64,000 bases of DNA from Bugula neritina (lineage: Eukaryota; Animalia; Bryozoa), in contig OZ037765.1 of assembly GCA_964035545.1 (NCBI GenBank), forward strand, positions 18,972,995 to 19,036,994, in the 5' to 3' direction. The translations under genes were made by a program, and so were the position numbers. The stretch's first letter is position 1; every line of letters starts with the position of its first letter. Positions 141-64,000 of the stretch are shown here, piece after piece. The notes under the pieces are model-generated. The model was not told the DNA's origin. It made no database searches and worked only from the letters and a program-made list of their open reading frames with translations.

Positions 141-22823
<22,683 letters not shown>

Positions 22824-27723: not shown

Positions 27724-27729
<6 letters not shown>

Positions 27730-40194: not shown

Positions 40195-40478
40195 CTGCAA
40201 ATTAGTGGAAATATTATTATATAGAGTGTTTAATATATTATGTTAGTATACTTATTAACATGTAATTATCTATTTATATATGACTCGTTGGACCTATTAT
40301 GTTTATATTTTCACTATTAACAAGTTATATCTATATTTAATTAATAAGCATAATACAGGGGTGATAAGGATTACTATGTTTATTATTTTATATAATGCTT
40401 TCCTTATGCTATATGTTAACGAACATATACATATTTTGTACATACACATATGATATTCTATTACTTAGAATCTTATAC

Positions 40479-40663
40479 TTCAACAATAGCTTTTTGAAAC
40501 AGTCCAGTGTTATGAGGACTCATCATCTGAGCTGAGACACTCCCAGCTCCTGCAGATGATCCAAATATGGTAATGAGCACTAGATCTCCACCAAACTTGT
40601 CAATATTTTCTTTTACCCACATTATAGCAGCTCTTTGATCCCACAAGCCAAAGTTTCCAGTGC
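40479..40663 (-). CDS. Carboxylesterase B exon 4
   Basis: GNFGLWDQ...[15 protein letters not shown]; 185 bp. Confidence 0.85.
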
Positions 40664-41125
40664 CTATTTGTTATGAAGCAGTATATTGCACTTGAACTGT
40701 TGTTAATAAATAATATTGAATCTACATTCAAGAATTTGGTGAACAAATTGAAGTAAGTTAAAAATAAAAAAGAAATATTATTCATAATCGCCTAGTAAAA
40801 GTATCGTTTGCTTTCCTTACAGCACAACTTTAAAGATACTATTTAGTGAGTGCATATTTGTATGTGTATGCTTGCATACAGCTATAATACATATATGCAA
40901 TACTGTTGTTAATTTATACTGCAAATAAATTACACTGTGGGTAGTTATTGAGAGTTTAATGCTCAAACATTTAACTCTTTGTAAGAAAGAAAGAATGAGG
41001 ATAAATTAATAATTGTAAAAAGCACATTGTTGGCTTGCAATGCAAAAAGAGCCCATGCAAGTCTGACTTCTTACAGAAGTGGTAAAAGTTACATATAAGT
41101 ATAAATCATATATATATACCTCAAT

Positions 41126-41170
41126 CTGTGGACAGCGGCTGTTTCGGGGTTTGTCCCCTCATCAGCACAG
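41126..41170 (-). ncRNA. Type-I hammerhead ribozyme (intact core)
   Basis: ctgtg-CTGATGA-gggg-acaaa-cccc-GAAA-cagccgctg-TC-cacag; all three stems pair. Confidence 0.88.
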
Positions 41171-41397
41171 AACAGAGTACCATGGCCCACACCTTCGCAA
41201 TAGTAGAAACTTATGTTTCTACTAAAGCATATTTAAAAGGTGTGTAAACTCAAGCCAGAGAGCTCAAGTGACTCTAGGGGTCACCTAGGAGTCACGAGCC
41301 TTGCAAAATGCTAGCAGCTTGAGTTTGTGACCATGGTGAGAGAGCTCAATCACTAAATGTCATTGCTGAGCATTAAGTGAGAGCGTAATACCTCAAT

Positions 41398-41442
41398 CTG
41401 TGGACAGCGGCTGTTTCGGGATTTGTCCCCTCATCTGCACAG
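41398..41442 (-). ncRNA. Type-I hammerhead ribozyme (core variant CAGATGA)
   Basis: Same fold with a U4A change in the core. Confidence 0.65.
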
Positions 41443-41672
41443 AACAGAGTACCATGGCCCACACCTTCGCAATAGTAAAACTTATAGTTTTACGTACTAA
41501 AGCATATTTAAAAGGTGTGTAAACTCAAGCCAGAGTGCTCAAGTGACTCTAGGGGTCACCTAGGAGTCACGAGCATTGCAAAATGCTAGCAGCTTGAGTT
41601 TGTGACCATGGTGAGAGTGCTCAATCATTTAATGCCATTGCTGAGCATTAAATGAGAGCGTAATATCTCAAT

Positions 41673-41717
41673 CTGTGGACAGCGGCTGTTTCGGGATTTG
41701 TCCCCTCATCAGCACAG
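41673..41717 (-). ncRNA. Type-I hammerhead ribozyme (intact core)
   Basis: ctgtg-CTGATGA-gggg-acaaa-tccc-GAAA-cagccgctg-TC-cacag. Confidence 0.85.
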
Positions 41718-41826
<109 letters not shown>

Positions 41827-42042
41827 TTATGTAGGAGCTGCAAGCCTCAAACAGTAATGAAATTAGCTCATTTTATACCTAAAGTTACAATATATAGCAA
41901 GCAAAGGAAATCAAACAAAATGATTTCTCGATTTTTTTAAATTAAAATATTTTTTTAATGTATGAGCAAAAAGAAGGTATTGCACTCAGTTGACATCTGC
42001 AATTTTAAAATATTGAATTTCAAATAAAAGAAACTTTCTCAC

Positions 42043-42267
42043 CATTTCCATTCGATAAAAATCCTAAAAGCCCGAGTCTGTAGTTGATGGCTACTACAAT
42101 CACATCTCCAGTTACGGCTAGAGGTGTACCAAAATATATATTTTTGGCTCCAGTTAAATAACTTCCACCATGTATCCAAATCATCACAGCTTTCTTGTTA
42201 TTAGAGTTAACTTCTCCTGGCACCGTGATGTTGAGGTGCAGACAATCCTCACTGCCAAAAACTGTTC
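42043..42267 (-). CDS. Carboxylesterase B exon 3
   Basis: SEDCL...WIHGGSY...INYRLG. Confidence 0.87.
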
Positions 42268-42515
42268 CTACAAAACAGAAGATTTAGAGTTATGAATTTA
42301 ATATCAGAGTTTGGATATCTTTTATTTGTGTATATTTGCTGCTTCGTATAGATGTCTATATTACAATTAAGCTGGCAATGTCAATGCCTCTTTATCAAAT
42401 AAACAATTGTAATGAAGCCTTCAACCTATGCTGTCAGCAATGTTTGTATTGAATCGCCTTGCTATTATTGCATGAAACACAACTAAAAATATAATATTTC
42501 TAAACCTTGACTCAC

Positions 42516-42647
42516 TCGACAAAAACAGGTCTTTTTGTAGACAATATGTTGTTTGGATGGTTGCCTCTCTTACTCCGATCCAAGAAGGATAGGCCTCTGG
42601 CTTTTTAAATCGTAATTTCCCAACTGGTGCTTTAGCATACGGTATCC
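42516..42647 (-). CDS. Carboxylesterase B exon 2
   Basis: [30 protein letters not shown]; donor A|GTGAGT. Confidence 0.85.
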
Positions 42648-43936
42648 CTATAAAAAATTTGAGAAAAAATATTTAGTTAGTCAGTTTTTGTCAAATATGT
42701 CATAAAAGTATCAACATTAAGCCTAGTTTCTGTTTTGTAACCTAAAATGTTTAAGAAGCTAAATGTAGTCTAAATAGACTTTTGCTTAAAAATGTACTTT
42801 TATTTAAATTCATGTCTAAATTCAATCATAAGGAATAAAAATTAGCCAACACATCGAATGAAAAATAAAAAAGCTGCCACATTAGGGAAGTATTTAGATA
42901 ATAAAAATTTTCGTCTAACTACATATCATAACATAGGAATTGTAAAGTTTTACTCTACCACCTTGCAGCTCAGACAATATATGTTATTCTAGAGGCTGAA
43001 ACAGAATAATGGCTAAAGACTTTATTCTGTGCATATGAGATACAACAAATAGATTAATTTTTGACCACTTAGCACTTCATAGTTATTTTAAACTACATAG
43101 GTATTATTCGTATAGTTTGCATTCAGTATTCAAATTGCTTATATATGCTGGGAAGTTTCAACATAGCTTATAAGTCAATCGTCTATATAGTCTATAAAAG
43201 CTTACAAGTATTCTGTTATAGCGCCTATAACAGGGGTTATAAATAAGTAGGTTATGTAGTTTAATATTTAGAAGCGTTTTGCCAAATAGCTTGCTAGCTG
43301 ATACTAAATTTACATAATATTGTAATACAACTTATATACCTCGCCAGTTGACTGGCCGTAAACCCTGACTCAAATGTATGCCTGGCCCACCGAGTAGCCT
43401 GGATAATTGTTCTCGTACAACACTTGACGTCCCAAATGAATAAAAATTGTTTTTGAGCTATCTGCATATACACACACATTCTCTTTGTATGTGTTTTTAA
43501 ATAAAATCATCACAAACAAAATCCAAAAAATTCCAAAACCAAGAATTATTTAAAATAAGTCATAAACCTGCGTCACCCACAATCAATTATTTTATTAATT
43601 CGATAAAAGTATATAATATTTGTTTGGATAGTTTTCTATTGTACAAAACTAAACTCTAGCAGCAGTCGCCTGCTCTCCCCCCCCCCCCCTCCATGATAGC
43701 ACATCACATTTCCAATTGACTAATACCAAATAAGAACTACTGAACAAAACCTCCTGATTGCATATTTCTAAAGTTTTTAGCTTTTCAATTACAAGTGCAA
43801 CAGAATTCTAACCAATATTGTTATTTCATTCTACAAATAGTGTATTAACTTTTAAGAAATAAATTTTTATTTGATATTTTGCAATGTAATACTATAAGAT
43901 AAATATGATAATAAACCCTTATTACTATTAACATAC

Positions 43937-44084: not shown

Positions 44085-45048
44085 TCTCAGTGTTAACAGC
44101 GGAAATGCTCAACTCCGAATTATTGTGATTGAGTTACTCCAGGGGTGCTTTTTCAGTATATCTTATACCACTGTATTAGCAGTAGAGGACTTCCAGTCAA
44201 TAGCGATAATAGAGCATTGTATTGATTAATTTCTAGAAATGGTCATCAACCTTTGCTTAGCCATACATTATGCAAATGAGTAACTGAATGGCTGTAGCTA
44301 ACAACCAATTCAATTCGATTGGTTAGGTAACAATAATAGCAAATAAAACAACTGATGGAAACAGTAGGGGTGATATTAATACGGCTAATTCAAGCAAAAT
44401 TTTGTACTTCAAAACAGTTCCCTCATCCAAAAATATAATAAGAACTTTGGGCTATAAGAAATATAAAAGTAGAGTAATTTGTTATTGATAAATCCTCCCC
44501 TTTTATTCTTTGTTGTAAGAAAATGCTCTTACCACTACAGCTATTTGATAAGAATTCAGTCTTGCAACCTAACTTGAACCTAAGTAGTCTTTTCACTGTA
44601 TAGACTATATATAGCAGATCTTATAAATCTATTATCTCTAACATTTATCAATGTTATAAAAGCATAGATCATGCCTTTTCACATTATGTCAGTTGTTATG
44701 CAAATGTATTGACTACATAATTCAAACACTGTTTCAAAACAGTTATATTTTAGAATTTTAATCAGCTCATGAACTAATATGAAATCTCGAGCTACAGTAC
44801 CTATTGTAGCAGATTTGTTTGGTCTGCTAGCAACCGCAACTTCTCCGAGTGGGTTTGGGAATTCAACTGATGTCTTGTGAGTGTAGTTTTTAGTATTTTA
44901 TTCCAACTAATAACACTTTCGCGCACGAAGCTACACCGTAAATTCTAAATAATAATACACACAATTTAAGGCTAAATAAAGTTTAAGAAAATAAAAACTG
45001 TAAGGAAATAATAAACATAAAAATTATTAAAGTAGGCAAAAATATTAC

Positions 45049-45489
<441 letters not shown>

Positions 45490-45492
45490 CCA

Positions 45493-45640
45493 CAATCTGT
45501 GGACAGCAGCTGTTTTGGGGTTTGTCCCCTCATCAGCACAGGAAAGAGTACTATGGCCCACACCTTTGCAATAGTAGAAACTTATGTTTCTATTAAAGCA
45601 TATTTAAAAAATGTGTAAACTCAAGCCAGAGAGCTCAAGT
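45493..45640 (-). mobile_element. Truncated copy of the same retrozyme family (hammerhead GAAA mutated to AAAA)
   Basis: Closely matches 41121-41268 and abuts the (TG)n/(TA)n tract. Confidence 0.8.
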
Positions 45641-47366
45641 TATTGAAAGTGCAACAACATTGCTTGTAAGATGTGTCAAAAGTCACAAAGAGTGATCCAT
45701 GTTCTCTTCATAATGTAATTCATCAGGTTGTGAGGCTAACAAGTCTAGTAATACTCCCTACGACTACTTGCAGCTCTGATTTGATACTGGTTGCTAAATC
45801 TACTCTTATCACAATTATGCATATAAATAATTACATGTAGTTTAATGCTTTCTACTGGTACATGTGACCCACTCATAATATATGCACTCCATTTAAAAAT
45901 ATGTTAACTAAAAAATTAGAAGATTTATGTTTGTTTTACAATTGATTTACATTGTTGCCTCAGCTTCACAGCAAAAACAAGTCAAATCATGTCTATACAA
46001 ACTTAGCAAATAAATTTTCTCAAGAAGTTTCAAGTCAACCACTGTTTAATTCAATGCAGGTGTAGAGCTCTGATGTTTAATTTTGTAATTTGGAGAAAAT
46101 ATATCAAAATTTTCAACCGGAAGCACTGTAACCGATATTGAATTTTCATAGCTTTTTTTTCTATACTGAGATGTAGCTCTATTTTATCGCTGCTTACCAA
46201 TCTTAATTTTGTGAGCAAAAATAAACTATCATGGTGCATTACTTGAAATTTCAGTAGCTTGACTGGTGACCATTTTTGCTCTTGTCTTTGATCTAGAATG
46301 GCATCCAGCCAAGCTATAAATGAAATATTGCGTGGTCTTATGTTATATAATATGGCACGTCATACAATTTATAGTGAGCTACTTACCTATGTCAAGTAAG
46401 TTCAGTGACAAAAAAAATCAATTAGATTATGGGAAAATAATAGTAGCTATAGTAACAATGATAAACAAAAATGAAAATATTGTTGTATTTCTTTCTAGAT
46501 GCTGAGTCATGTATAGAAACACATTATTGTTTAAACATGCATTCATAATCATCTTATATTTGTTGCACAAATGTAAAGATTTATAAAACACTCATGGACT
46601 TACTGTAGAGGATTATAGTTTTAAGATAATGGACTGAGCATGCATAGTTTCAATTTTTATTGGTTGATGTTTATAAAACATAGGAGTTTGATTATCCCTC
46701 ATTATACTTTAAATAGCATTTTAGCTGCACTGTTGTACAATAAGATTATACTAAGAATAAAGAAATACTTTTATTTGAGGGAAAATCTTCTAAATTTATA
46801 TTTATTCGGAATTAAATTCAACGCATGATGCACACAGAAAGTTAATACATTCTGTTACTTTCTTTGGCATTATTGCCATAAACATTTATGTAAAGAAATA
46901 ATATTACCATACCATCACAATTATTATTCAATAGTTAAAAACTAAAAATGTATAGTTGCTAAACCCTTACGTAATAAATAGTTCTTTACCCAAAGTCTAA
47001 CCTTCGAAATATAATTGATTCACAAAGCTTCACCATTTGACATTATAAAAGCTATAATAGTTACAGAAGAATAATTTGTTTTGCTATAAATTTTGGATGC
47101 ATTACTAATTATAAGTTGTATTACACAAAATCACACAAAAATCTTCAATGTGCTGTTATAAAGCGCAGTTAAATATTGTCCAGCAGGAGAAATAACTTAG
47201 AAATGTCAGAATAATCACTGCATATAGCAAACTGCAATCATGAGTGATAAAAGCATGATGAGCAGTATAATGTAGTGATCTAATGTTGTGAAGGTATTTC
47301 AGTGTCTAGTATATATGATATAATGAGCCATATACTAGAATAATCACATGAGTTATAGGTGAGTCA

Positions 47367-47503
47367 CTAGAAGGAAAGCAGATATTTGCTGACTAAAAGC
47401 GTAGTCAGCGGAAACAGGAAGTGTGACAAGACAAGGGTGTTTGCTGAGTTGTCCTCTTTCACGTTATCTCCCCCTGAACTCTCTGAGGTGGGCACACATT
47501 TAA
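47367..47503 (-). CDS. Carboxylesterase C exon 10 (Cys + GPI-anchor signal)
   Basis: (V)[44 protein letters not shown]; phase-compatible with the exon 9 donor; conserved in copy B. Confidence 0.78.
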
Positions 47504-50500
47504 CTACAATTAAGTAAAATATAACATGATGTTAGGATGTGAGCAGTTGAAACTATGTCACTTATGCAGAACGTTACTAGACGATTTCAAACCTGCTAAA
47601 GCACTAAATATTTCCACAAACTTTTAAAAAAGTTTGTGGAAATATTTTCAGGAACATTAGTAGTCATCATCATACAATATTTTGAGCACTCAGTTTATGG
47701 AAAGCTATAACATTTTTTTATTTTACTGCTATTTATTTATTTATATTGTTCTTTATATATATTATGCATGTTTCTATTTGTTTTATATTAGATAATGTAT
47801 TACATTTTTATGAATTATCTTTAATGAAGCATTTAGATTCTAGTTCCACACCTGGAGCTTTGTCAGACAAAACTTGTAGTCTTCTAGCCTCAAACAAAAC
47901 ACTCTGTACTTTCTCCAGTCTCTCCTTGTGAGGAGTTGTGATCACACTGATGTTGTCTTTGTTTAAATCCAGAAACTTGTTAGTTACAGTGTTGAACTGA
48001 GGCCACTCCGGTACATCATCAGGAAGTGCAACTGGCTGATTGGGGTTTCTATTTATAATATGCACTGAATAAATCACTAATATCTTTATAACAATTAGAT
48101 GATATATTATATTATAACACATAGTTATATATCTGATATATGCAACAAAATCATGTAAGTATTAACTATTGATCAGTTGCTACCTCATGATATATTTGTT
48201 GAATATATTTACTCTATGGTAAAATATAAAACTACTCCCAACAAAGCTCCGTCAAATTTTTTTTGTTACTGCTATAGCAAAAAAGCAATTATGACTGAAT
48301 GCTCTTTCTAACATCATGCAAATAGCCTTTACTAGGAATCAAACCACTGCACTGGCTTGCGTTTACCCAGGCAGCACCTTAACTAATAAACCATAGCTGC
48401 ATATGATTCCTTCATTACCAAATACAACCTCAATTATCTAAGAAATAATATCATTGGATATAAATTTCTGGGACAAATTTTGAATTTTAAGCAATGCAAG
48501 TTTATATCTTACCCTGATTTAGCAAAATTAGTCCACATAGTCATCATGGTATTTGATAGTGGTTGTAGATCTTCAGTTGTTGCATTGATGAACTTCAAGT
48601 ATGTACTAGTTGCATCTGTGAGTGGATCTTCAAGGTAAGCTATAATAGTCATGGTAAATATGATTGAAACTAGCATATCAAAATATTCACATGTTTAATC
48701 TAAAACTATTTTTGCTTACTGTTTGCACCTACATATATTCAAAAGTTATGGACAATTAATTTTGTAGGTATAAGCACTGAACAAAATCCTTTAAAATGAA
48801 CATCTGACAAATAACCACCATTAACGCATATACTATAGAAATGTGGCTTGCCAGAAATAGTATGTCAGATGAAACATTTTTCTGCTCTTTGCTTTAGAGG
48901 ATTTTGAAAATATAAATACGCAATATTTTATTTTCCCAGTTCTTAATAGTAATAAGGCTGTTCATACTTTTTTTCAGCTCTTCATCTTTAGCTGCCTGAT
49001 ACCCTCCAAAGACCAATCCTACTTCAGCAAAATGATCAGCTGACACTCTGATCCAATCAGGTACTTGGAAAGGTAAGGCAACAGCAGGCGTGAGTTCAGT
49101 AAAGTAGTAAGCATATGTAGATTGGCTAGAAGAACTGTGTTCACTGTGATCCACCAACTTTCTCACACTGTCCACATTAAAGTTCAGTTCACCTGCAAAT
49201 TTAAAGTTTAATTTATCCTTTATAATTTAAACAACTGCATGTGATAGCCTTATAAAAACAACTTGAGATATTGCAAAAGTTAGCCATGCAAAAAACTCCC
49301 ACAAGCTTATAGTTGCCGTTCCTGTTAGAAAACCCCTGATGAAAAAGGTTTTTGTCAAATCAGGTTAAGGACTTATTCAGTTACTAGGCAAACGCTCTAA
49401 CCCTTCGACCACTGCTGCTCCCATGTTTTATGTCAGCATTGCAAAAGTTAGCCATGCAAGTTGACATAAAATATGCACAATGCAATAGCGAGAATAGTAA
49501 CTGCGCTTATATATTATAATGCAGTAAGCTATATAATAGCAATTTGAGGCCTGGAATTGCAGCTTCACTAATATCTAGCTAAATAGATGTTTTCTAAATT
49601 CTAAAATATGAATTATAGATGAAGATTTTAGAAACTACATATATAATATATTTATGCAGATGGGATATGCTTAATTATAGAGAACAAACAAAGTAATAGT
49701 ATAGGAAAAGAATGACAGAAGTTAGTTTTAACAAATATAATATTTGGAAAATTAAAGAAGATGCACCTGACATAAGAGAATAGGCAATAGCTCTTTGTTG
49801 GTTGTCTGCAAATTGGTCCAGTTGGTATAAATTTACTAAAAACTCAACACACAGTTTAGTAGAAAGTGGAACAGCCATGGCGCACTCTGCTGACTCTAAG
49901 ATGCCTTTAATGCTGTCTAATGACAATCCGTTGTTTACTGCATCTTCAGCAGGATAGAACGATAAATAAGATGCAGCACTAGCTTGCATTTCTTGTCCAT
50001 TGAAACCTTGCAAGAGGTCAAATCTAAATTATACCAAACATATGACTCAGAGCAAGAAAATGCTAGAATAGGCTACAGCAGGACTATAGTATTTTATTTG
50101 ATTGGTAAGACTTGATCAAATACTAAACTATTATAGCATATTAAATGAATATTAAATAGGTGTTGCAATTATAAGCATCCTGATCATATCAAATTTAGAC
50201 CATATTTGGAAGCCATGATATAAAATCTGGTATACTTTCTACATGCAGAACTATAAGAAATTTGCTAAATTTACTTGCATTTTTGAGACCTTTCAGCTCT
50301 TCCAAAAATCATAAAATATAATTTTAATTTAAAAGGTGGTTGTCCAAATTTATTCTTTGATTGATTCATAATAATACGCATGGTTCTTTTAAAACCTCAA
50401 ACTTGACTATAGGTTCTTCAGAGGTTAGCCAATAGGTACATACTTGAAACATACCAAAGTAAAAGGCTGCAAAGTACATTATAATGTTACTGTATTGAAA

Positions 50501-53500
50501 TTAGCGCTAGTTTGCTAAGCTATTTTAGCTACACTAAGAAAAGCTTTCTACAGCACAGCCAGTGCTAACTCTGGCACTTGGCAATTGTTGGTGTTAGTGA
50601 ACTGGTGTAATTTTAAGAGAGCAAAATAAGTAAGTTATTTACATTAATTATATTGTTTCCTTTTTTGTTTATTGTTTATTTATGTTTATCCTGATCATGT
50701 AAGTTTGAATTGCAATAATTGTAGTCTTGACGGTGTCAATAGGATGTAAATAGAAGTCAATGAGATCAACTAATGTATGTTGAATAAAACAAAATAAAGG
50801 ACATCAGTGAAGAGTTAATGCTCAACTCAAAGCCTAGTTCACTACAGTCAAGATTATTTGTAACCAAGTCAAGATAATTCCTGAAGTCAAGTCAAAGATA
50901 ATTAAAAAAATTATAATGTTGGACCAGTAGAGAATTTTGGAGCTGGAATTGTCCATGCATACCGATAAGCCGATGTGGGGATAAAGTAGATGAATTTCAG
51001 TGATACACCCAAAAGAGAAGTCTCACAGGCCAGCTAAGTCAAAGTGTTATGCAAATATATTCAGTTATGATGAATACAAATGCAGCTAGGAACATTCAAG
51101 AAGTTCATTTGATGATGTGTTTGATGATGTGTGTATGAATTGATCAAAGTTAATAGTTTCTACATCAAGCTGAAACATTGGTTTTAGCTTTTAGCTTTTT
51201 TGTAGCAAATTTGTCAACATAATATGTGTTTTGTTATAATATTTTCTATATGCAAGAAATTAAGTTTTGTAATTGTTATTTGTTATAGTGCAGGCTAAGT
51301 TGTAGAGAGCTTTGTCTGCAAATCTCGTTGACTTGGGTGCTTTACAATTTGAATTAAATCATTGCTAGTATAGGTATCGTGCTAGCATTTTGTCAAAGCC
51401 CTCCAGAAAACTTTCCAGTTTCAAACATAAAAACAGCATTTCCTTGTTACTTTTTCATTGTCATAATAAGTTGTTTAATTGTTGTCATCTATCTAGTGGT
51501 ATTATTATATACAAGTTGGTGATTTAGCACATTTTGGTTAATATTTTAACATTTGTGGTGCATGAATACAAAGCACTGTAGATTGTCATTTAGAGACAAC
51601 ACTTGTATGTCATTGATATTTGTATGTGAGACATAGGTTATGTTGTAAACAATTGTGTAGGTTGTTTGATTATAAATGCACTCAGTACTAGTTTGTTCAC
51701 TTTCAGATCTAAAGCTAAACTTTATATATTGATAAATTGTTTTTTTGTTATATCTGACAATATTTATTGTGATAATTCTCTATGTGTTGGCAGCATCATT
51801 TTGATAATTTTGTCAATCTCTATGGATTACATATAATTTTTGGTTAAAATTGTTAATTGAACACTTAATTATATAAGATGAGTGGTTTATACATGGAAGT
51901 GTTAAACTTATGTCGGTGAAACAACTCCGAAACAAACTAAATTGCTACGGGATGCCAGCAACTGGCGACAAAGATGAGTTAAAGCATCGCCTACTCAAAA
52001 AGTTTGAAAGTCATCAAACACAGGTGGACAAAAGTACAAAAGATAAGTCTAAGGTAGAAGTAAGTTCACAAAAGGACACACCTTCAAATACCAAACATGA
52101 AGACTCAGTGCAGCACAATGATTTCAACTCTCGTGACCACAGAAAGGCTGCAAAGGCAAGAAGAAAAGCTGAAATACAAAAACTGCTGAGTGAGATGGAC
52201 AGCCCTAGTGATGAGGACTCATCAGGTCACAAAAGGGAAAATTACCACTTGCAAGAAGCTTGTGTTCATGGAAGTCAAATGATGTTTGAGAGGTTACCAG
52301 CACCTACCCCGCCTGTATTTAATGGCAACGTACTTGAATATCATGATTGGAAAGTAGCATTCGATGGATTGATTGGTCATCTCCCTTTACAACCAAGCCA
52401 GAAGTTCTACTACCTAAAGCAGTATTTGAGTGGTAGAGCACTCAATGCTGTAAGCAGTTTTCTTTTAATGAACACAGAGAAGGCATACATGAAAGCACGA
52501 AATCTTCTAGACAAGAGATATGGAGATCCTTATTTACTCAGTAGAGAGATTCAAGCAAAGTTGAGAGCTTGGCCAAAAATAGCTACAAGAAACACCGAGG
52601 AACTACGTGACTTTTCTGACTTCTTAACCAAATGCCTGACAATGAAAAATGAAACAAAATCCTTGAACTATCTTGACAGCGTTTTTGAAATCTTAGAGTT
52701 AACTCGGAAACTCCCAAAATGGGTCATAAACAAATGGAATGACAAGGCCTATAAATACAGAGAAGAAAATGGAGAACATCCTGATTTTAACAAGTTCGTA
52801 AAATTTTTGCGCAGGGAGTCAGATAAGGCATGTAATTCTGTGTATTCGTTAGCAGCAGTAAGACAAACACCTGAATCTAATAAAAGGAGGGATGTTTATA
52901 GCAAGGCAATACCAGAAAGAAAGTCTATGATATTGAACAACATTTTTCCACACATTTAACCAGGAAACGTGAAAAGTGTGTTATTTATTCAAAGAAGCAT
53001 CCTACAGTATTACACCAAGAAGACCAGTGGAAGAAACCTGAAAATATTATATGTTATGAAGATGAATCTCCAACAAAAGAAGTGGTAGCTGCTCAAGATA
53101 TTCTACGGACTGTAGACCAAGACTTTAAGTACATCGATAATCAGCCTTCAACAGTTTTTGGAAAAGTTGGCAACGTATCACAAGATGACATGAAGTGTAT
53201 GAATATTGAAAGAGAAAACGTAAAGCAAAATGTATCTGGTTGCTTGTCTATGAAAGACGACATTGAGCCATCGCATGGAAGTAAAATAATAGTATTAGTT
53301 ACCCGAGAAGAGGTGAAGTTTCAAAAATTTGTAGATCCAGCCATTCAGGACCTGTATGATTTTGCTGATGCAAATTGGTTTGGATACATCTCAAGGAAGT
53401 TTAGAGGAAATTCACATCAAGGAAATGAAGAAAGGAGAATTTCATTCCATATTTTAAGGGCCAAAGCACGTACAACACCATCGATGATCACCACTGTATC

Positions 53501-56500
53501 TCGCTTAGAGTTGAAAATAGCAATTCATTTGAGCAAATTAGTTAGACATGAACAAGTGTTTGCAGCACGCGAGTTTGCTTACAATAGTTTTAAGATAGAA
53601 CTAGGATATATAGCAAGTAAAACCTGGCCATCTCAAGCATATGTCTCAAATGACATTCAACAAGTAAAGAATCACACCAACATGTTTCAATTGACACATG
53701 TCTCAACCAGAGATAATCTAGCTCAGTTAAAACTTGGGGAAGTAACATTTAACAAACATGAACAGTTGACCGTGCTTTATAGACCAGAATATCTTCGATC
53801 AATAATAGAAGATCGCTCATCTCCTACATGCTTGGCAAACTATGAATGTATGACAGACTATGCCATGAAGTCAAAGTATAATGATCCTTTACAGTCACAA
53901 GAACTAGCAATAACAACAATTGTATAGAATGGTTTACAAGGTTCACAATGTTTCACCTAACACTTTATGCTTGCAAAGTAATACTTGGGAAAATACTTAG
54001 ATGCTATAAACAAGATATGGCAGGTGACTAAAGATAACACGGAACCAAACTAAAACAGTCGTCATAAGGGGCGAACTTTCACTTAAGATTAGCTCTATGT
54101 ATAATTGTATTTAAATGCTATTCCTTAGTTTTTTTTGTTAAGTATGTTGTTATATGTATTTATATGTTTTGTTTTATGTCATTTTTGGTTAACAAGTCAC
54201 TAAAAATCTAAGGTGTTTATCAAATGTTTGAGAAATGGGAGCGATTTCTGGAGGGTGTGTAGTGAAATTAGCGCTAGTTTGCTAAGCTATTTTAGCTACA
54301 CTAAGAAAAGCTTTCTACAGCACAGCCAGTGCTAACTCTGGCACTTGGCAATTGTTGGTGTTAGTGAACTGGTGTAATTTTAAGAGAGCAAAATAAGTAA
54401 GTTATTTACATTAATTATATTGTTTCCTTTATTGTTTATTTATGTTTATCATGATCATGTAAGTTTGAATTGCAATAATTGTAGTCTTGAAGGTGTCAAT
54501 AGGATGTAAATAGAAGTCAATGAGATCAACTAATGTATGTTGAATAAAACAAAATAAAGGACATCAGTGAAGAGTTAATGCTCAACTCAAAGCCTAGTTC
54601 ACTACAGTTACTTTTAAGTCAGCCTTCTGGTACGTAATAAATTAAACCTAAAATACCTTCCAGAAAAATTGGAAAGATATACGTAAAGCATAATATTGTT
54701 TTGGAACCCATAAAATCAAAAAATACATAGTTTTACTTTTAACTTTGCATTCTGTTAATAAATTAAACTTTAAATACCTTCCAGACAAGTTGTATACTTC
54801 AGCCACTATGTCTTTAGAGAAGAAATCTTCATCTGGAAAAGGGATAAAGTAGTTCAATGGAACTTGTGTAGGAGCTGCTACGGAGAATATTTCTTCTAGG
54901 GTCTTGTCAGCAAGGCATGTGTAAACTGACATGTCATCAGAACATTCATATTGCTCTTTTATATTATTCTGATACTTGTGCAAGTTGTTTTGTGAAACAT
55001 GCCAGCCCCATGGTGAGAAAAGAGACCCGGACTACAAAGCAGTAAAAATATTATATAAATCATTTGACATATTATTATGTTTATACTATATCTATTATAA
55101 ACATATTATATATATTATTATATAAACATGATACAGGAGTAATTTATAGGATTATTATGGTTATTTTATACAATGTGTTCTTCATGTTTTACGTAAAGAA
55201 GTATATCAGTTCTGATAAACATTTCTAGTGATGGTATTCTATAACTTAGATTCTTATACTTCAACAATAGCTCTTTGAAACAGTCCAGTGTTATGAGGAC
55301 TCATCATCTGAGCTGAAACACTCCCAGCTCCTGCAGATTCTCCAAATATGGTAATGAGTTCTGGATCTCCACCAAACTTGTCAATATTATCTTTTACCCA
55401 CATTATAGCAGCTCTTTGATCCCACAAACCAAAGTTACCAGTGCCTGCATGTGTTGTGTAATGCATATAAATATCACACCTGAATTGCTATTAGTAGGCC
55501 ATTTCAAAAATTTATACATTCAAAAATTAAGCTAGCAAATTTAAGTACGGTAAGTTGAACATCCATAAAAAGTTATTATTTATCCCTTGGTGAAAATATC
55601 GTTTGCTTTCCTTACAGCACAACTTTAAAGAAAGTATTTATTGAATGTAAATATGCATATAGATGCATGCATATATTATACAACCACAATGCACATGTAT
55701 AATAAGCCTCTGTATGCCTAGCCTGTAATATGTGAGCTAAAGCTTTCAAGACTGTCCATTTATCAACAAATTAATGACATGGGCGCAATGAAAATTATTA
55801 TAACATCTTTTCAGTTCCAGTTTGAAAATGTCAAAATGTTGAAACATATTTTGTAAAAAACCTATTTAGATTAGATAAATGACAAAAAAAAGTGTTTCTT
55901 TTTTGCAAGAAAATTTTCATTTTTTTAATAAAGCTTTGCTTTAAATATTTAGTTTAGCAAATAAATGATTAATTAAAGCTTTACATCTTTCTTAGCTGTA
56001 TACAAGTTAATAACATTTTTATGAACATATAATATCAATTTCTTTCTTTTTTAAAACTATTTTTGAAAAATAAAAAGTTTTTCTTGAACTGACAGGCAAT
56101 TTTAAACACTAGCTCAAAGACGTACTTTTATTGGCAATAAAAAAATATAATCATTTTAATTCATGTAGACTAAAAGCCTCAAATAACAATGACAGTTAAT
56201 TAGCTCATTTTATACATCAAACTACAATAAATTAAAATAAAATCAGCTATCAAATAATTCGTTTGCTGCCTTTAAATTAAAATAAATTCCGTTTTAATGT
56301 ATGAGCAAGAAGAAGGTAGTATTGTGCTCGGTTGACATCTACAGTTTTAAAATATTGAATTTCAAAGAATAAAAACTTTCTCACCGGTTCCATTTGATAA
56401 AAACCCTAGTAGTCCGAGTCTATAGTTGATGGCTACTACAATCACATCCCCGGTTACAGCCAGAGGTGCACCAAAATATATATTTTTGGCTCCAGTCGTA

Positions 56501-58343
56501 TATCCTCCTCCGTGTATCCACACCATCACAGCTTTCTTGTTATTAGAGTTAACTTCTCCTGGTACTGTGATGTCAAGGTGCAGACAATCCTCACTGCCAA
56601 AAGGCGATCCTACAAAGCAAAAGATTTAAAGATTATAATTTTAAATCAACGTTTAGGCATTCTGTGTTGGTGTATTTACAATGCCAATAATTGGGACTCA
56701 AGTTGCTTGAGACCCAATTATTGGCATTGCAAATACCTTTTCATCAAGTAAAATTTTTCAAATATGCTAATAAGCTTTCAACCTATATTATCAGCATGTT
56801 TGTCTCAGATCACGCTGAAAATATTGTTTGAAACGTAATCTGACACCCATGAATGCCTAAAAATACTCGCTAAAAATACCGCTTTTTACACACTCAATAT
56901 AAGATATTATATATATTAGTGGTAAAATTTTATTTGTTTGCATAGGTTTATTGGCGATCAACTAATCAATATTGTTTACTCAATGCATGCACCTACAATG
57001 ATATAGTATTACAGTAATGTGTTATGGTTTGCCTTGGTTTTCAATTGCACAGGTGCATGTTACTGCTATGTGCCAACTACAATATAGCAAAATATAATAG
57101 AATCTATTATAGCTATGCACAAATCACTTTTCATAATGATCTAGCTACAGGTACAGAAGAAATAGTTTTAAAGAAAATTCACCAAACCTTTACCCAATTG
57201 GGTTGGATAAAATGTTCACATTCTTACAATGCCATGTGTTAAATAATTTGGCCGTGAAGATAGGTATTTTGAAGCTCAATCTCTCTATGCATTTATATCA
57301 TCTTATGCTCGCATGACAGTTTTCAACTTTTTATTTTATGGACTTCAATTTTGAACAACTTAATTGAAAAAATTAGGCGGGCTTTCAACCATCACATAAT
57401 ATGCATACAATTCACTGCTCAATATAAAAGAGTTGGAAACTTAAGTTGTAAAATTATTGTTTTGAGTTTCTGGTTGTAAATAAAACATGCATTTCAAAAA
57501 ACTTCCAGTTTTTAAATGAACAGCTTTTGAAAGCATTGAAATGCACTCTTAAATGTAAATCTTTAGCATTTTGCTGTTAAGCTAACTTTAGTAAGGAAAA
57601 AATTTTCAATTCAACACCAAGATCAGAATAAAAATGATGCTAAAATCTCCAGCTAAAGCAAATTTTTAATAATGATAATAAAATTATCATCCAAAATTTG
57701 TTAGAAAAACTTTTAAAAAAAGACTCAAGCTTTAGTCTTATTTCATGTACAATACTCTTTGTTGCTTCTAATTTTGTTAATATTAGGTAAAGATTGCAAA
57801 TGTCATGAGTAATCATATTTAAATCTTTAGTTTACAGTTATTGAAAAATGAATTTATGAACCAACAGTTGCATGATGCAACAAGGGTGGCTAGAGTGAGA
57901 CACCGGTGTTGTTTTTATATAATGCATTTTAATTACGTATATGTAGGCCTTTTATTAAATATCAAAAATTAAAACTAGCAATGTAGCTCAAAATCTCACG
58001 GTTTTTCACTTTTGTTATTGGTGTTTATTTGAATTGCAAGTAGGCTATGCCGAGGAGCTTTGGCCGAATTCTTACTCAATTTAACAGCATCAACTATACA
58101 GTGTTATAGTTGCAAGTAAATTCAGCAAAAATGGCATTCATATAGTCACATTGATGATTAAACTAAAAAATAAAATGTTTTGCTGGAAAAAAATTTGTAA
58201 AACTTGATTACCTGGCAAAAAGATATCTTGTTGTGGACAATTTGCTGTTTGGATGGTCGCGTCTTTGATTCCCTCCCAAGAAGGATAGGCCTCTGGCTTT
58301 TTAAACCGAAGTTTTCCAACTGGTGCCTCAGCATATGGTATTC
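47367..58343 (-). CDS. Type-B carboxylesterase copy C (5'-partial; exon 1 right of window), predicted GPI-anchored
   Basis: Exons 58343-58212, 56609-56385, 55444-55260, 55031-54778, 50023-49767, 49192-48968, 48639-48513, 48048-47852, 47503-47367 join in frame. Intact GESAG/GFNGQE/ADHFAE triad. About 628 aa if exon 1 is 148 bp as in A and B. Confidence 0.92.
47852..48048 (-). CDS. Carboxylesterase C exon 9
   Basis: [18 protein letters not shown]; donor CAG|GTGTGG. Confidence 0.85.
48513..48639 (-). CDS. Carboxylesterase C exon 8
   Basis: [12 protein letters not shown]; 127 bp. Confidence 0.9.
48968..49192 (-). CDS. Carboxylesterase C exon 7
   Basis: [12 protein letters not shown]; 9-bp in-frame insertion relative to A. 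Confidence 0.9.
49292..49437 (-). mobile_element. tRNA-headed SINE-like insertion with 22-bp target duplication
   Basis: ATTGCAAAAGTTAGCCATGCAA at 49270-49291 and 49438-49459 (single copy in gene A); A-box-like GTGGTCGAAGGGTTAGAGC head. Confidence 0.7.
49767..50023 (-). CDS. Carboxylesterase C exon 6
   Basis: GFNGQE; 257 bp. Confidence 0.9.
50491..50846 (+). repeat. 5' LTR of BEL/Pao element
   Basis: TGT...ACA; AATAAA at about 50783. Confidence 0.95.
51910..52959 (+). CDS. gag: BEL/Pao Gag (DUF1759-like) with N-terminal SAP-like motif
   Basis: [20 protein letters not shown]...[14 protein letters not shown]...LDKRYGDP. The N-terminus [28 protein letters not shown] resembles the SAP consensus. 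Confidence 0.85.
   Translation: MSVKQLRNKLNCYGMPATGDKDELKHRLLKKFESHQTQVDKSTKDKSKVEVSSQKDTPSNTKHEDSVQHNDFNSRDHRKAAKARRKAEIQKLLSEMDSPSDEDSSGHKRENYHLQEACVHGSQMMFERLPAPTPPVFNGNVLEYHDWKVAFDGLIGHLPLQPSQKFYYLKQYLSGRALNAVSSFLLMNTEKAYMKARNLLDKRYGDPYLLSREIQAKLRAWPKIATRNTEELRDFSDFLTKCLTMKNETKSLNYLDSVFEILELTRKLPKWVINKWNDKAYKYREENGEHPDFNKFVKFLRRESDKACNSVYSLAAVRQTPESNKRRDVYSKAIPERKSMILNNIFPHI
53082..53927 (+). pseudogene. Highly diverged BEL/Pao Pol remnant (RNase H / Peptidase_A17-like region)
   Basis: [12 protein letters not shown]...[10 protein letters not shown]...[10 protein letters not shown]...HVSTRDNLA resembles Pao LHxFxDAS...AKSRVAP...IPRLEL...HVxSxxNPAD. Confidence 0.7.
54258..54606 (+). repeat. 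3' LTR of BEL/Pao element
   Basis: TGTAGTGAA...TTCACTACA terminal inverted repeat; purine-rich tract upstream. Confidence 0.95.
54778..55031 (-). CDS. Carboxylesterase C exon 5
   Basis: [10 protein letters not shown]...; 254 bp. Confidence 0.9.
55260..55444 (-). CDS. Carboxylesterase C exon 4
   Basis: FGESAG; 185 bp. Confidence 0.92.
56385..56609 (-). CDS. Carboxylesterase C exon 3
   Basis: SEDCL, WIHGGGY; 225 bp. Confidence 0.92.
58212..58343 (-). CDS. Carboxylesterase C exon 2
   Basis: [14 protein letters not shown]. Confidence 0.92.
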
Positions 58344-59161
58344 CTTTAAAGAAATTTGGAACAAAATACTGCCTCATATTAGTCAGTATTGAGCATGTCA
58401 TTCAAGTGTATAGACATTAAAGCCTAATTGTTTCTGATTTGTAATTTAAAAATATGAATACTTACATTGAAAATGTAGGCTACACATATTTACATTTATG
58501 TCTGAACTTTAATGCAATGCAATAAAAATTAGCTATAGCGCATCAAATGAAAAATATGATATCCATGTTAAGCATGTATTTAGAAATTAATGCAAATTTA
58601 TGCCTAACTAAGTTTTATTTTATAAAAATATACTGTACACAAATACCACAGATATATAAAAAAGTTTAATTCTATTTTTTGAATATGCACACATTATTTT
58701 TGTATATTTTCCACAAAACATAATTATAACAACTCAAAACTGAAAAGCAATTCACATAACAGCTACATAACTCAAAATAAAAATATAACGTTTCTTTGTC
58801 AATTTTTTTATTGCACACAACCATGCGCATAATAGCAATAGTCTCCAAATGGTATCCCATAAAGTGATTTGATTGACTATAGTTCAAATATGAAGTTATA
58901 CATTAAACAGTGTGTAAATTTACATTAGACATGAATCTTTTTATATATATATAATATTTTTACTTCTGTAATTTTATAAATGCCACAAGCCTCTATTTAG
59001 TGAATATCAGTATAACATTCTAAACCATGACACTTGGTGTAAATGCCTATGTCATGCTAGCTTAATAACAAAATAAAATGACATCAATGAAGATTTAATA
59101 ATCAACCACAGCCTAGTTCAAGAATTTTTGCTTTCTAACAAGTACAACCAGTTCACTACTT

Positions 59162-59559: not shown

Positions 59560-59864
59560 TGTTATCATTTTTAGATTTAGGGTTGATGTGCTATCCAGAG
59601 AGTCTATTTATTTACTATAGAACTGCACCAGGATAAGTCGAGTGAACGAGTATATTTTACACACAATTATACATTATAAAAACGATACATTATTTCCAAA
59701 CAAGTTACACATCTAATCTATTTCACACTCTAGCTTCGACTGAGTTAGCAGCGGGAAACTACAATTGCTGCTAACTATCAACTACGCTAATTGGCTATCC
59801 ATTGTTCCGGGTCAATTACGCGACCCTACATGTCGTGCTGCTGGTAGTTCCACGAACCACCACA
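59560..59864 (-). repeat. Putative 3' LTR of Gypsy element 3
   Basis: TGT...ACA ends, adjacent polypurine tract, minus-strand AATAAA. The partner LTR is not in the window. Confidence 0.7.
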
Positions 59865-60152
59865 CCGCCCCCACCAGCAGAAAGCCATCTTTCTGATATA
59901 TATATAAAAAAAACATTCAATAGTAATTGCATACATCAGTGGACAAAATAATACATAATATACAGGAAGAGACACAATAATAGGCAGAGTCATTATAACG
60001 ATCCGTTGCATACAATTGGCCAGCTGTAGATAGACGAGGAATACTAGCTAGCTGTGGTATTAGACAAGGAATAACCTGTCTAGCAGTTAAGCATTTGCAC
60101 GATCTTGGTTCCTCACAAGATGTGAAGTTGCGGAGTATTCTGGGTAGCCTAA

Positions 60153-61230
60153 CTAGAGTCCTTGTTGGGCACGCCGGTGCTTGGCTTGGCATGTACGCAG
60201 TTTCCGTTTCATACGGCATACGGATCCCTTTAGCTGGAAGAGTCCGGTTGTAGTGTTAAGTAGATCTGGTGCCAGCTGGGTGAATTCTTCTTGTAATCGC
60301 AGGAGGCGTTCTTCTACTGTGGCTAGGCGGACTGGGTCGGGGGACGGTGTCCGTCTGCGGCGCAAGGGTGGACTGGGGGACCTGGTTCGTCTCTTCGCCG
60401 GGGTAGGGGAGATCTCTCCTTCTTCTGGATATGTAGTTTCCTCGGGGGTGTATGTGATTTGAGGGCGGTCAGACACCAACGGGGATTGTTGGCGGGCGTT
60501 GTCTAACACATGTTGGACCCCCGAGGACAGAACGGCTAATAGCATGGCCTTCTTCACCAGAGGTCGTATAAGTGTGAGGAACTCCGGGTATAGCTTAGCG
60601 TCGACCACGTAGTTCTCTCCAGGGAAACAGCCCGCCGCCCTGTGTCTGGTGACGGGGTAGGGATACACATCATTGTACCCGCAGGGGCAGAATGTCAGTA
60701 GGAGATGAGCATTGACGTGTAGTTTAAGGGAGCGGTGAGAGGCGCAATCTTCACCACAGATCTGGCATCTCGTCCGTCCTCTGGACCCCCAGGCTGTTTC
60801 TATTTCTTCTTCTGTTTGTGGAGACACCCACCGCCAACGGCGGCGTAGTGGCTCAGGCCGGTCACCACTAGCATACTCCTCTGGATACGGAGCGGGAAGT
60901 GTTCTATCCCGTACCCTGGTTGTAGCGGGTCGAGTGTAATCTGAAAAAGTTTCAACAGTGTTAATACAGTACACTGTTGTGTTGTCAGCTTGAACAGCTT
61001 GGCAACTCCTAATTCAGTTACCTCGTAGAGATTTATGGTAGTGAATAGTCAGATAGAACACGTATTGCAATGAGATTATAAAAATCTCTAAGTCAAACTG
61101 AGTTCTTACTACGGTATTTCACTAACCTATCTCCAGCTCGATTGACTCAGTGAGTCAGAGCTGAGCGATGCAATCTAGTTTCGTATTAAGATATAGTTAA
61201 CTCACCCCACGATCTGTTGTCGTAAGACAT
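60153..61230 (-). CDS. Predicted two-exon zinc-finger / Arg-rich / coiled-coil accessory gene of Gypsy element 3 (exons 61230-61206, 60940-60153; 270 aa)
   Basis: ATG 61230, donor G|GTGAGT, branch-like ATTAAC, acceptor TTTTTCAG|, and the phases match. C-x2-C-x12-H-x3-H followed by C-x-C-x12-H-x4-C. Confidence 0.7.
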
Positions 61231-61751
61231 ACTGAATGCGTGAAATGGTTTGAACTACTGCTTAGAAACACGTCTACTCCTGACTGCATCAGCGTATGAA
61301 AAGATCGAGCAACGTGGTTGGGGTGCGTGATTAAGACTTTGTGCACCCGGCGGATGAATTTTATTTCTATTTCCGCCGATGCAAAAGTTGATATTTCCGT
61401 GGTGTTGACAACTCCCACATTTGCTCGATTCTTTTCTCGTACGGTTTTCCCCTAGACTTTCATGCGTGCCGCTTTTAACGCAGTCACATAAGAAGTCCTT
61501 CAAGTATGCGGGGGGTTGCCTCGTACGCTGTCCCCTTTCTAGGGGGGGTGACACGCTTGCCGGTTCGTTAGTAGGGGCCTCTAATGGCGTCTCTACTTCA
61601 CCGTCAGCAGTCACCTCTTCTTGTTCTCCGGATGGAGCCCCTCCCTCCGTGGGGGTTTGCACTTCCGGAACCGGCTCGGTTTCTGGAAGTGATGAAATTA
61701 GACTTGGCGGTGGCGGACACGCTTCTGTTGACAAAAGCTGCCGCTCCTCTC

Positions 61752-64000
61752 TCACCAAGTTTTCCTCCCGCGGTATGACCACTTCGTAAAGTGGTCGGTT
61801 AGTACTAGGATCCAATTATTGCCTCTGGGGGTCAGGGGCATGGGTCCGACCAGGTCTACAGCGACTACTTGCCAGGGCCTACCAGCGTATAGCCTCCGCC
61901 GTCCTGCTTCACCAGGGGGGCGGCTATGCTTACTGGCCTGGCAGATCTCACACTGTTTGACTCTGAGCCGGACATCACGCTCCATTTGTGGCCAATACCA
62001 CCGAAGTCGTAATTTGGACATCACTCGCTTGACCCCTGCGTGGGCCTGCTTGTGAGTATCCCAAATCAACTCACGGCGGATGGCTGTGGGGCAGACCACC
62101 CTCTTCCTTTCCGGGTGTCTGCCGCTGGCAGCTAGAGAGATGGTTAGTAACCCATCCTGCCCGATCCGCAGCGAGTCCCAACGCTGACAGTATAGCCGGA
62201 ACTCGGCGCATCCCTGTCGTATGCGTTCCTCGCTGGGTCGTCGCCCTTCCCTTTTGGCCCGGTATATGTCCGCCACGACTCCAGGCAGCTCTTCTTGGAG
62301 CTTCTTCAGCTCTCGAACATTACCGGCCAGTACAGGGTTGGTGCGGAGGTTTTGTACATCCTCCGGGGACTCATCAACTCTTTGCCTGAGTTGACCTTGA
62401 TCCCAGTCAAACGGTGCTCCGTGATGAGCCAGCGTCTCCAACTCGCATCGTGGGGGACCTCCATCCCTCCTCTCGATGTTGAGACACTGTTTGCAACCTT
62501 CGTCAGGTCGACGACTCAACCCATCCGCATTGCTGTGTCTCTTGCCCGGTCGATGTTCGATCCGGTATGAGAATTCAGCTAGGATTTCGAGCCACCGGGC
62601 GACCTGACTAGAGGGCTCTGCTCTCCTGCACAACCAGATCAGCGAGGCATGATCCGTACGCAGCCGGAACTTCCTGCCATATAGGTATGGTCTGAAGTGC
62701 TTCACTGACTTGATTACTGCCAGCAGCTCCTTGCGGGTAGTGCAGTAATTTCGTTCAGCGGGTGAGAGAGACTTGCTGTAGTAGGCTACTACTACCTCTC
62801 GGCCTTCCTGCACTTGTGACAGCACAGCGCCAACATTCTGGTCACTGGCGTCCGTGTCTAGGATGTACTCCAGAGTGAGGTCTGGGTAGGCCAAGATGGG
62901 CGCCGTTAGTAGGCAGCCCTTGAGGCGGTCGAACGCTTCTTGTTCGACTGGAGTCCACTGCCACGTCACCCCCTTTGCGGTGAGCCGGTTTAACGGCTGA
63001 GCTATGCCCGCAAAGTCTGGTATGTATTGCCTGTAATACCCTACCAGCCCCAAGAAAGCCCGGAGTCCGGTCAAGTCTTGGGGGGTGACCCAATCTTCTA
63101 CTGCCCGTACCTTTTTGGGATCCGTTGCCACGCCGTTTCGACCGACAACGTGCCCCAGGTACTTGACCTCCGGCTGCAATAGAGCGCACTTGGAAGGTTT
63201 GAGCTTAAGACCGGCACCTCGGAGTCTCTCGAAAACCTCTTGCAGACGACTGACATGTGTCTCGAAGTCTGGAGAGATTACGATGACATCATCGAGGTAG
63301 ACCAGCAGTGTCTTCCAATGGAGTCCGCTAAGGACTTGTTCCATCAGCCTCTGGAAGGTGGCTGGGGCGGAGGTTAACCCGAAGGGCAGCACCTTCCACT
63401 TCCACAAACCGTCCCGTTTTATAAACGCCGCTTTCTCTTGGGCGTCGGGACTCAGAGGAACCTGCCAATAGCCGCTTAGCAAGTCTAACGTACTGAAGTA
63501 CTTGCTGCCGGCTAGGGCGTCCAATGACTCGTCAATACGAGGTAGAGGGTAGGCGTCCTGTATGGTTACGCTATTGAGTTTGCGGTAGTCCACACAGAAC
63601 CGCCAACTGCCGTCTTTCTTCCGGACCAGTACGACTGGCGAGCTCCACGCACTATGGGCGGGCTCTATCAGTCCCCGGTCCAGAAGATCCCGTACTTGTC
63701 GGCTAACCTCCTTCTCTTTCTCCGGCCCCAGCCTGCGCGTGGGCTGCCGGACATGGACTGTCCCTGCAGTCATCGGTATTTCGTGTCTGACAATTCCAGT
63801 CAGTCCCACGTCATGCTCTCCGCTGCTGAACACATCACCGTAGTCGCGTAGTAACTTAGCCATAGCTTGGCGTTCCCTGTTACTCGCGCAGCCGCCACTG
63901 GCTGTTTCATATAACTCCCGGAGATGTGTTGGGACTGCCCCTCGTCCCTGAATAGGGTGTCGAGGGAGTGCCTCTGTCGCATCATCCAGCGACGGGCCTA
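61752..64000 (-). CDS. pol: Gypsy Pol (RT, RNase H, integrase N-terminus; integrase core deleted)
   Basis: The frame is open to the window edge. RT WRFCVDYRKLN/LPFGL/YLDD, RNase H DTDAS...ELLAV...TDH, IN H-x3-H...C-x2-C and VAVDLVGP...TDHFTKW, then an abrupt loss of homology. Confidence 0.93.
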   Translation of the reverse strand, partial: GPSLDDATEALPRHPIQGRGAVPTHLRELYETASGGCASNRERQAMAKLLRDYGDVFSSGEHDVGLTGIVRHEIPMTAGTVHVRQPTRRLGPEKEKEVSRQVRDLLDRGLIEPAHSAWSSPVVLVRKKDGSWRFCVDYRKLNSVTIQDAYPLPRIDESLDALAGSKYFSTLDLLSGYWQVPLSPDAQEKAAFIKRDGLWKWKVLPFGLTSAPATFQRLMEQVLSGLHWKTLLVYLDDVIVISPDFETHVSRLQEVFERLRGAGLKLKPSKCALLQPEVKYLGHVVGRNGVATDPKKVRAVEDWVTPQDLTGLRAFLGLVGYYRQYIPDFAGIAQPLNRLTAKGVTWQWTPVEQEAFDRLKGCLLTAPILAYPDLTLEYILDTDASDQNVGAVLSQVQEGREVVVAYYSKSLSPAERNYCTTRKELLAVIKSVKHFRPYLYGRKFRLRTDHASLIWLCRRAEPSSQVARWLEILAEFSYRIEHRPGKRHSNADGLSRRPDEGCKQCLNIERRDGGPPRCELETLAHHGAPFDWDQGQLRQRVDESPEDVQNLRTNPVLAGNVRELKKLQEELPGVVADIYRAKREGRRPSEERIRQGCAEFRLYCQRWDSLRIGQDGLLTISLAASGRHPERKRVVCPTAIRRELIWDTHKQAHAGVKRVMSKLRLRWYWPQMERDVRLRVKQCEICQASKHSRPPGEAGRRRLYAGRPWQVVAVDLVGPMPLTPRGNNWILVLTDHFTKWSYRGRKTW

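Follow-up and report, generated by a model that had tools for sequence, protein, structure and literature searches.

Complex retroviruses make small regulators, such as Rex and Tat/Tax, from spliced mRNAs near the 3' end. Rev is likewise the product of a small accessory gene expressed from spliced mRNA near the 3' end (PMC10309623). Among Gypsy elements, the only function-tested accessory regulator of such a layout in the literature we searched is CERV, which belongs to Cer1, a Ty3/Gypsy element of C. elegans; it is expressed by splicing, its C-terminal half occupies the env position, and the genomic RNA depends on it for export (PMC10309623). The available part of that paper describes CERV as a 517-aa protein of five exons, three of them common with gag, in which a C4-type loop is combined with a GTPase-like domain, and its authors note no obvious homology beyond nematodes (PMC10309623). 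In the LTR retrotransposons of bdelloid rotifers, the non-Env ORF3s are of GDSL esterase, DEDDy exonuclease, coiled-coil, and TM types and are typically expressed via spliced messages, as far as the accessible text goes (PMC5408684).

Here, we analyzed a 64,000-nucleotide stretch of DNA from the bryozoan Bugula neritina (the window), in which a Gypsy element carries a zinc-finger gene in the env position. Compared by description only, this gene shares with CERV a Gypsy setting, a non-Env ORF located after pol and before the 3' LTR, splicing, a leucine zipper, and a basic NLS (all three predicted here), and a zinc-binding motif, and CERV's last exon lies in the frame of the polyprotein, as in distant relatives of the window gene; the window protein differs in its length of 270 aa, its C2H2 plus CxC-H-C pair, and its own mini-exon behind pol (PMC10309623). 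Bdelloid ORF3s likewise occupy the env slot of animal LTR elements and are non-Env genes specific to their families, but they are enzymes or membrane proteins, and the words "zinc" and "intron" are absent from the main text that describes them (PMC5408684). Extra ORFs of plant and fungal elements likewise include conserved genes in the env slot, some of them spliced, but the sense ones are TM or env-like, many are antisense, and no such zinc-finger domain is reported in the accessible part of that account (PMC7264820). Unlike Rev/Rex and Tat/Tax, to which it has no shown homology, the window protein belongs to an element without Env and has no NES outside its folded domain.

Since CERV precedes it, a complex-retrovirus-like Gypsy layout is already described, and on this point the initial annotation is overstated; intron retention also does not need a Rev-like regulator, since Mason-Pfizer monkey virus exports its unspliced RNA by RNA structure alone (accessible part of PMC10309623). 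The layout is therefore known from CERV, and what we found in no description are the protein family, the mini-exon behind pol, and the occurrence of fused and free forms. Our literature search, with Repbase, Dfam, GyDB, and supplements outside it, returned no account of this zinc-finger family, and no such gene is described in the available parts of PMC6431247, PMC11952523, PMC13524379, PMC2836005, and PMC4592553. Caenorhabditis was absent from 30 named accessory-protein clusters or pol relatives. With more than 100 protein clusters, the window gene would represent a second, apparently independent solution.

The accessory gene and its Gypsy element

The features are listed below in the direction of transcription, followed by a homologue elsewhere in the window; (-) denotes the minus strand.

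61755-63998 (-): Gypsy pol (RT, RNase H, integrase H2C2 zinc-binding domain), from Pfam and the match to relatives
61255-61815 (-): pol tail ORF, the low-complexity integrase C-terminal region after an internal deletion
61232-61238 (-): acceptor-like CATTCAG just upstream of the ATG, a candidate 5'-leader acceptor
61206-61230 (-): predicted coding exon 1, 25 nt, MSYDNRSW plus G, ATG at 61230
60941-61205 (-): predicted phase-1 GT-AG intron, 265 nt, donor GTGAGT at 61205
60965 (-): branch-like ATTAAC in the intron
60948-60941 (-): intron acceptor TTTTTCAG
60153-60940 (-): coding exon 2, 788 nt
60489-60875 (-): conserved double zinc-finger domain with flanking helices, from the 125-stretch alignment and AlphaFold
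60339-60395 (-): Arg/Ser-Pro tract, candidate nuclear localization signal, subfamily-specific
60159-60335 (-): long helix at the C-terminus bearing leucines in heptads, a predicted coiled coil
59865-59875 (-): polypurine-tract-like run downstream of the accessory gene
59584-59864 (-): probable 3' LTR, about 280 nt, AATAAA at 59612, bounds approximate
32634-32936 (-): decayed domain homologue behind the pol of a second Gypsy element (tblastn E 1e-8, 26% identity)

When 61230-61206 is joined to 60940-60153, an in-phase open frame of 270 aa results behind Gypsy pol. We reproduced this phase-exact join from the window sequence and found the ATG, donor, branch-like ATTAAC, acceptor, and upstream CATTCAG where the initial annotation had placed them on the minus strand; the Cys/His finger motifs, the Arg/Ser-Pro tract, and the long C-terminal helix that it had read in the protein are all present as well. 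At 0.374, the GC content of the intron is below that of the pol tail (0.524) and of exon 2 (0.561). Five stops close the exon-2 frame upstream, inside the spacer, and exon 2 of the window has no in-frame ATG ahead of the fingers. At the CATTCAG site, the AG is without variant in DNA run X2, while 61238 and 61239 vary.

The upstream pol is assigned to Ty3/Gypsy by its Pfam order RVT_1, RT_RNaseH, Integrase_H2C2 (RVT_1 6e-37, RT_RNaseH_2 8e-36, Integrase_H2C2 6e-15), and the accessory ORF, which is non-Env, lies between it and the 3' LTR, the position of CERV. The 5' end of pol and the 5' LTR are beyond the window edge. The integrase core is missing in this copy, a point absent from the initial annotation: pol matches its relatives up to query residue 740 and breaks off where the core begins, while six intact relatives continue for 144-430 residues more. 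At the probable 3' LTR, the summed contig depth in DNA run X2 is about 116,000 versus about 20,000 on either side. No match to pol was confirmed in viral contigs.

The double-zinc-finger family

We found 72 homologues of the exon-2 protein at E <= 0.001 among 1440 candidates, all from metagenome or Logan assemblies and 44-98% identical to it. A profile of 36 homologues gave 123 representatives at 50% clustering, 63 of them at E <= 1e-10, and the core alignment comprises the 125 stretches that cover the core out of 199 proteins examined. The domain follows the pattern W-x-S ... CxxC-x12-H-x3-H-x5-CxC-x12-H-x4-C. Conservation of its Cys/His residues had been proposed as a check on the gene, and all eight ligands proved to be 86-100% conserved across the 125 stretches, along with the upstream Trp and a downstream Val-Asp; this conservation persists down to about 25% identity. 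The first finger is a classical C2H2 finger (C-x2-C-x12-H-x3-H, ligands 94-98% conserved) whose helix has two conserved Arg/Lys positions (R 0.65, R 0.69). Fingers in classical C2H2 arrays are joined by TGEKP-type linkers, whereas here a five-residue linker precedes a CxC-x12-H-x4-C second finger, so that the pair does not form a TGEKP-joined array. Judged by this conservation across sequences, the accessory gene is real, selected, and family-conserved, not a one-off.

AlphaFold predicted one compact domain for the 129-aa domain stretch with 88 sequences (pLDDT 95.1, pTM 0.86), while the full-length model with 36 close sequences was poor (pLDDT 54) and had no significant Foldseek match. The domain model had no structural match at E <= 0.001 in PDB or BFVD, and its best structural Z among 48,161 chains was 3.7; matches to C2H2 arrays were limited to the finger pair of about 50 residues (Z <= 3.6; Foldseek E >= 0.5). 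This absence of a good structural match does not prove a novel fold. By sequence, the best PDB matches of the family profile were classical C2H2 fingers (SALL3 2e-5, HIC2 8e-5, TZAP 2e-4), with weak bZIP matches to c-Jun and C/EBP (E 0.09-0.75), which we set aside. The window domain resembles SALL3/4, HIC2, TZAP, and Kaiso in its first finger and two-finger arrangement but differs from them in its CxC-x12-H-x4-C second finger and in that the pair sits inside a larger domain. No Pfam family reached its cut-off for the window protein (C2H2 single-sequence E 0.14), zf-C2H2_4 barely passed its cut-off in 1 of the 36 homologues scanned, and the ESM Atlas gave nothing clear, with C2H2-type leads only (best score 0.89).

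Outside the domain, the C-terminal helix spans residues 202-260 in the predicted structure, and its LATxEERLLRLQ is near-invariant in close homologues; a heptad-like pattern occurs at this end in 23 of 29 distant homologues versus 8.6 in shuffles. Among the protein features that had been listed early on, the finger pair and the helix are thus present, but the Arg/Ser-Pro tract is found in only 2 of the 44 close homologues examined, and we rejected it as a family feature. Some kind of basic run occurs in 18 of 29 distant homologues, a count made without a control. All NES-like patterns lie within the folded domain. Since the protein has no clear TM segment (its highest 19-residue hydropathy, 1.5, lies in an amphipathic helix), it is not Env, as had been argued from the start; there is also no env family among its Pfam matches and the predicted fold is a zinc-finger one, and we rejected an Env identity.

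Candidate functions and integrase-fused forms

A finger pair with a basic helix, a linker, and a coiled coil is, on the predicted structure, the anatomy of an oligomeric nucleic-acid-binding protein. We hypothesized that, as a nuclear regulator, it binds the LTR of its own element and keeps the element transcribed, a reading that we favor tentatively and that, taken as the whole chain including the DNA step, we hold to be somewhat short of an even chance. The 265-nt intron would be excised from the accessory-gene transcript, a further splice from the 5' leader would occur as for env, and the protein, with its predicted fold, predicted nuclear location, and oligomerization through the predicted coiled coil, would bind the LTR as its putative target and either sustain transcription or counter silencing. 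We favor this reading because the finger resembles DNA-binding C2H2 fingers, the Arg-rich tract lacks conservation, and the protein contains no NES-like pattern beyond the folded domain. Its weakness is that a shared C2H2 fold would not by itself indicate a function, and C2H2 fingers can bind RNA or protein too. The earlier suggestion of a nuclear regulator or anti-silencing factor thus keeps its conserved non-Env gene and its nuclear-type features, with the function a prediction.

Alternatively, the protein may be a Rev- or CERV-like export factor, which would be translated from spliced mRNA, bind the unspliced genomic RNA, oligomerize by its coiled coil, and license export; we consider this unlikely but credible. 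The layout is as in Cer1 CERV, whose env-position ORF is expressed from a spliced mRNA and encodes a leucine zipper, a basic NLS, and a Cys finger, and CERV, the only tested precedent, acts on RNA export (accessible part of PMC10309623). The strong splice signals, which genomic RNA must escape, and the Arg-rich tract of the window subfamily also point this way. On the other hand, that tract is rare even among close homologues, NES-like patterns are confined to the folded domain, the fingers are like classical C2H2 fingers and unlike CERV's C4 loop, and a protein of this kind is not indispensable for exporting unspliced RNA (PMC10309623, in the part available).

The distribution of the domain bears on a further alternative. 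P0324 encodes RNase H, integrase, and SH3 with the domain after them, all in one 1460-aa frame, and P0325 has SH3 and then the domain in frame. Such forms are what would be expected if the domain guided the integration complex to particular DNA or chromatin, as an integrase fusion in some lineages and in trans in the present one. We regard this tethering role as unlikely, though fusion of the domain in frame behind integrase is compatible with it too. The slot is also that of the chromodomain in chromoviruses, which is located after integrase. Between SH3 and the domain, however, P0324 has about 500 residues that match no Pfam family, which would fit cleavage or separate spliced expression, and a stop and a predicted intron separate the gene from pol in the window lineage. 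Since the last CERV exon of Cer1 lies in the polyprotein's frame, as the domain does in P0324, and yet is expressed by splicing, in-frame fusion is not decisive, and the parallel speaks for an export factor as well (accessible part of PMC10309623).

We also examined 80 listed pol-related loci, drawn from 10 of 64 search parts, among which the family HMM found no clear family member. Twenty have at least 1 kb behind integrase, and 4 of these 20 carry a C2H2-like motif, fused to integrase in two and in separate ORFs in the other two. At L002:5174-7381 and L003:5343-7628, the pol of which is 56% identical to the query, integrase extends in frame for more than 600 residues with a finger pair and then an acidic tail; this finger pair within a long integrase extension would favor tethering, but L002 matches the family HMM weakly (iE 0.0066) and L003 not at all. 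L011:2481-3350 and L029:3127-4467 each have a separate post-integrase ORF that combines C2H2-like fingers with a C-terminus that is basic and looks helical; their pol is 38% and 47% identical to the query, respectively, and neither scores against the family HMM. A search for longer fused forms gave none in 7981 candidates, a weak negative, as P0324 proves that fused forms exist. DNA surrounding the homologues was confirmed for none of 180 metagenome, 95 viral, and 120 genome-collection pattern matches.

Within the window, a second Gypsy element, decayed and distant, lies at 32000-39000 (-), with pol DNA 67% identical (blastn) and the domain in the equivalent slot (family HMM iE 6e-28). Upstream of its domain, it resembles the relatives P0248 and P0281, which start with MPKF, and an acceptor-like site is found near 33200. 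We considered a coding intron in this element and rejected it, as its two phase-1 ATG-donor candidates are weak and the relatives have their own start. A third, decayed Gypsy element at 3950-9500 (-) is 70% identical to the second and shows no trace of the accessory domain, its 3' end apparently being cut off at a (TA)n run.

The domain is small, folds with high predicted confidence, and lends itself to expression and assay on its own, and the gene family permits a direct test of transcription against RNA export and integration targeting. If the preferred LTR-regulator reading is true, env-less animal retrotransposons would commonly carry their own nuclear regulators. A still broader picture, which we consider doubtful, is that a large, hitherto undescribed marine-invertebrate Gypsy group consists of "complex" retroelements with their own multiply spliced double-zinc-finger nuclear regulator, which would shuttle between integrase-fused and free intron-containing forms and would have been domesticated more than once by bryozoans.

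Probable intron removal and origin of the gene

The 265-nt intron is probably removed by splicing in the family of this copy, as judged from its signals and from the homologues. Within the 314-nt spacer, there is a single phase-1 donor that follows an ATG with no intervening stop, and it matches all 5 scored consensus positions. Such a 5/5 ATG-donor unit occurred in 20 of 5000 dinucleotide shuffles, and one with at least 4 matches in 304 of 5000, in a test that was post hoc and assumed the acceptor to be present. Among the 23 of 85 close proteins that span the junction, 22 carry the signature [FL]-[SL]-[DG]: the junction is preceded by Ser (20 proteins), Leu (2), or Glu (1), Phe or Leu stands one place further back in 22 of 23, and the junction residue itself is Asp in 21 and Gly in 2. 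We infer that this signature is the translation expected of a conserved pyrimidine-YAG/G acceptor.

A quite unlikely alternative is that the ORF is real yet unspliced and starts at an ATG beside or downstream of the supposed acceptor, with the mini-exon and donor being coincidental. A Met at -3 from the junction, where translation could start, is present in 15 of the 23 spanning homologues, although gene callers favor rows with a Met upstream of the junction; the distant B-type proteins P0248 and P0281 start with an MPKF of their own. However, the window and 8 of the 23, including P0001, P0002, and P0046, are without this Met, the apparent start sites of homologues scatter over several positions, and the donor unit is rare in shuffles. 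P0024, the one spanning protein without the signature, also argues against an unspliced ORF, as it has a 14-residue Met leader joined exactly at the junction position and is nested with support 100/99 among relatives of acceptor-type sequence in the tree, as would be expected of an intron-lost copy. Likewise, four homologues have a His-Cys pair ahead of the junction; in the window, this pair is readable only in a different frame, suggestive of non-coding conservation.

Reads bear less on the question. RNA run X1 has one contig inside exon 2 (60574-60792) and none across 60940-61247 (share of words 0.16); since the intron is without cover, this run demonstrates neither splicing nor transcription. 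In DNA run X2, 119 contigs on 60870-61310 include no exon-exon joint. Neither run thus provides a junction read, as an unspliced ORF would have it. The 17 variant places in these 441 nt of X2 all lie outside the ATG, donor, branch, and acceptor; with so few places, however, the invariance of ATG/GT/AG has low power (about 0.76 expected by luck). Ten of the 17 listed places and a 1-nt insertion fall within the intron, and 2 of the 3 variants in exon 1 are synonymous. The spliced accessory gene of the initial annotation is therefore supported by its signals and by the homologue signature, but not by an RNA contig across the junction.

Bryozoan gene models also contain the domain (XP_067940964.1, XP_067944745.1, KAF6040922.1), and bryozoans are its only named holders among the names looked up. 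In the family set, the bryozoan models are P0219/P0320, P0266, and P0321, all candidate domesticated genes; P0266 (Watersipora) and P0321 (Bugula) have a common short N-terminal motif, and one Watersipora protein has two tandem domain copies. These models may be a new source of domesticated zinc-finger genes. They occupy at least two separate places in a domain tree. This tree, built from 80 of the 125 stretches (distant stretches with at least 85 residues and 13 close ones), has few columns and a midpoint root, and the direction of transfer cannot be read from it. Although annotated bryozoan genes include the domain, a one-off captured host zinc-finger gene, carried neutrally, is highly improbable and, as the refutation that had been allowed for, is itself largely refuted by the 72 homologues and 123 clusters, the presence of the domain behind pol in several distant element families, the conservation of its ligands at low identity, and the separate tree places.

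Other features of the window include a tandemly duplicated host gene at 1-14000, 39000-43000, and 47000-58600, with copies about 70-84% identical and with SEDCL and WIHGGG motifs in exons that we take to be carboxylesterase-like; the three Gypsy elements are interspersed among these copies on the same strand. A 358-nt direct repeat (50491-50848 and 54258-54608, 97% identical) encloses two ORFs at 51877-53927 (+), presumably a BEL/Pao gag region, and together these are probably a young, internally deleted LTR element. Near-perfect palindromes lie at 27720-27904, 22268-22450, and 23698-23778, the longest being 185 nt at 96% identity, and a long pure (CA)n microsatellite lies at about 45030-45520.
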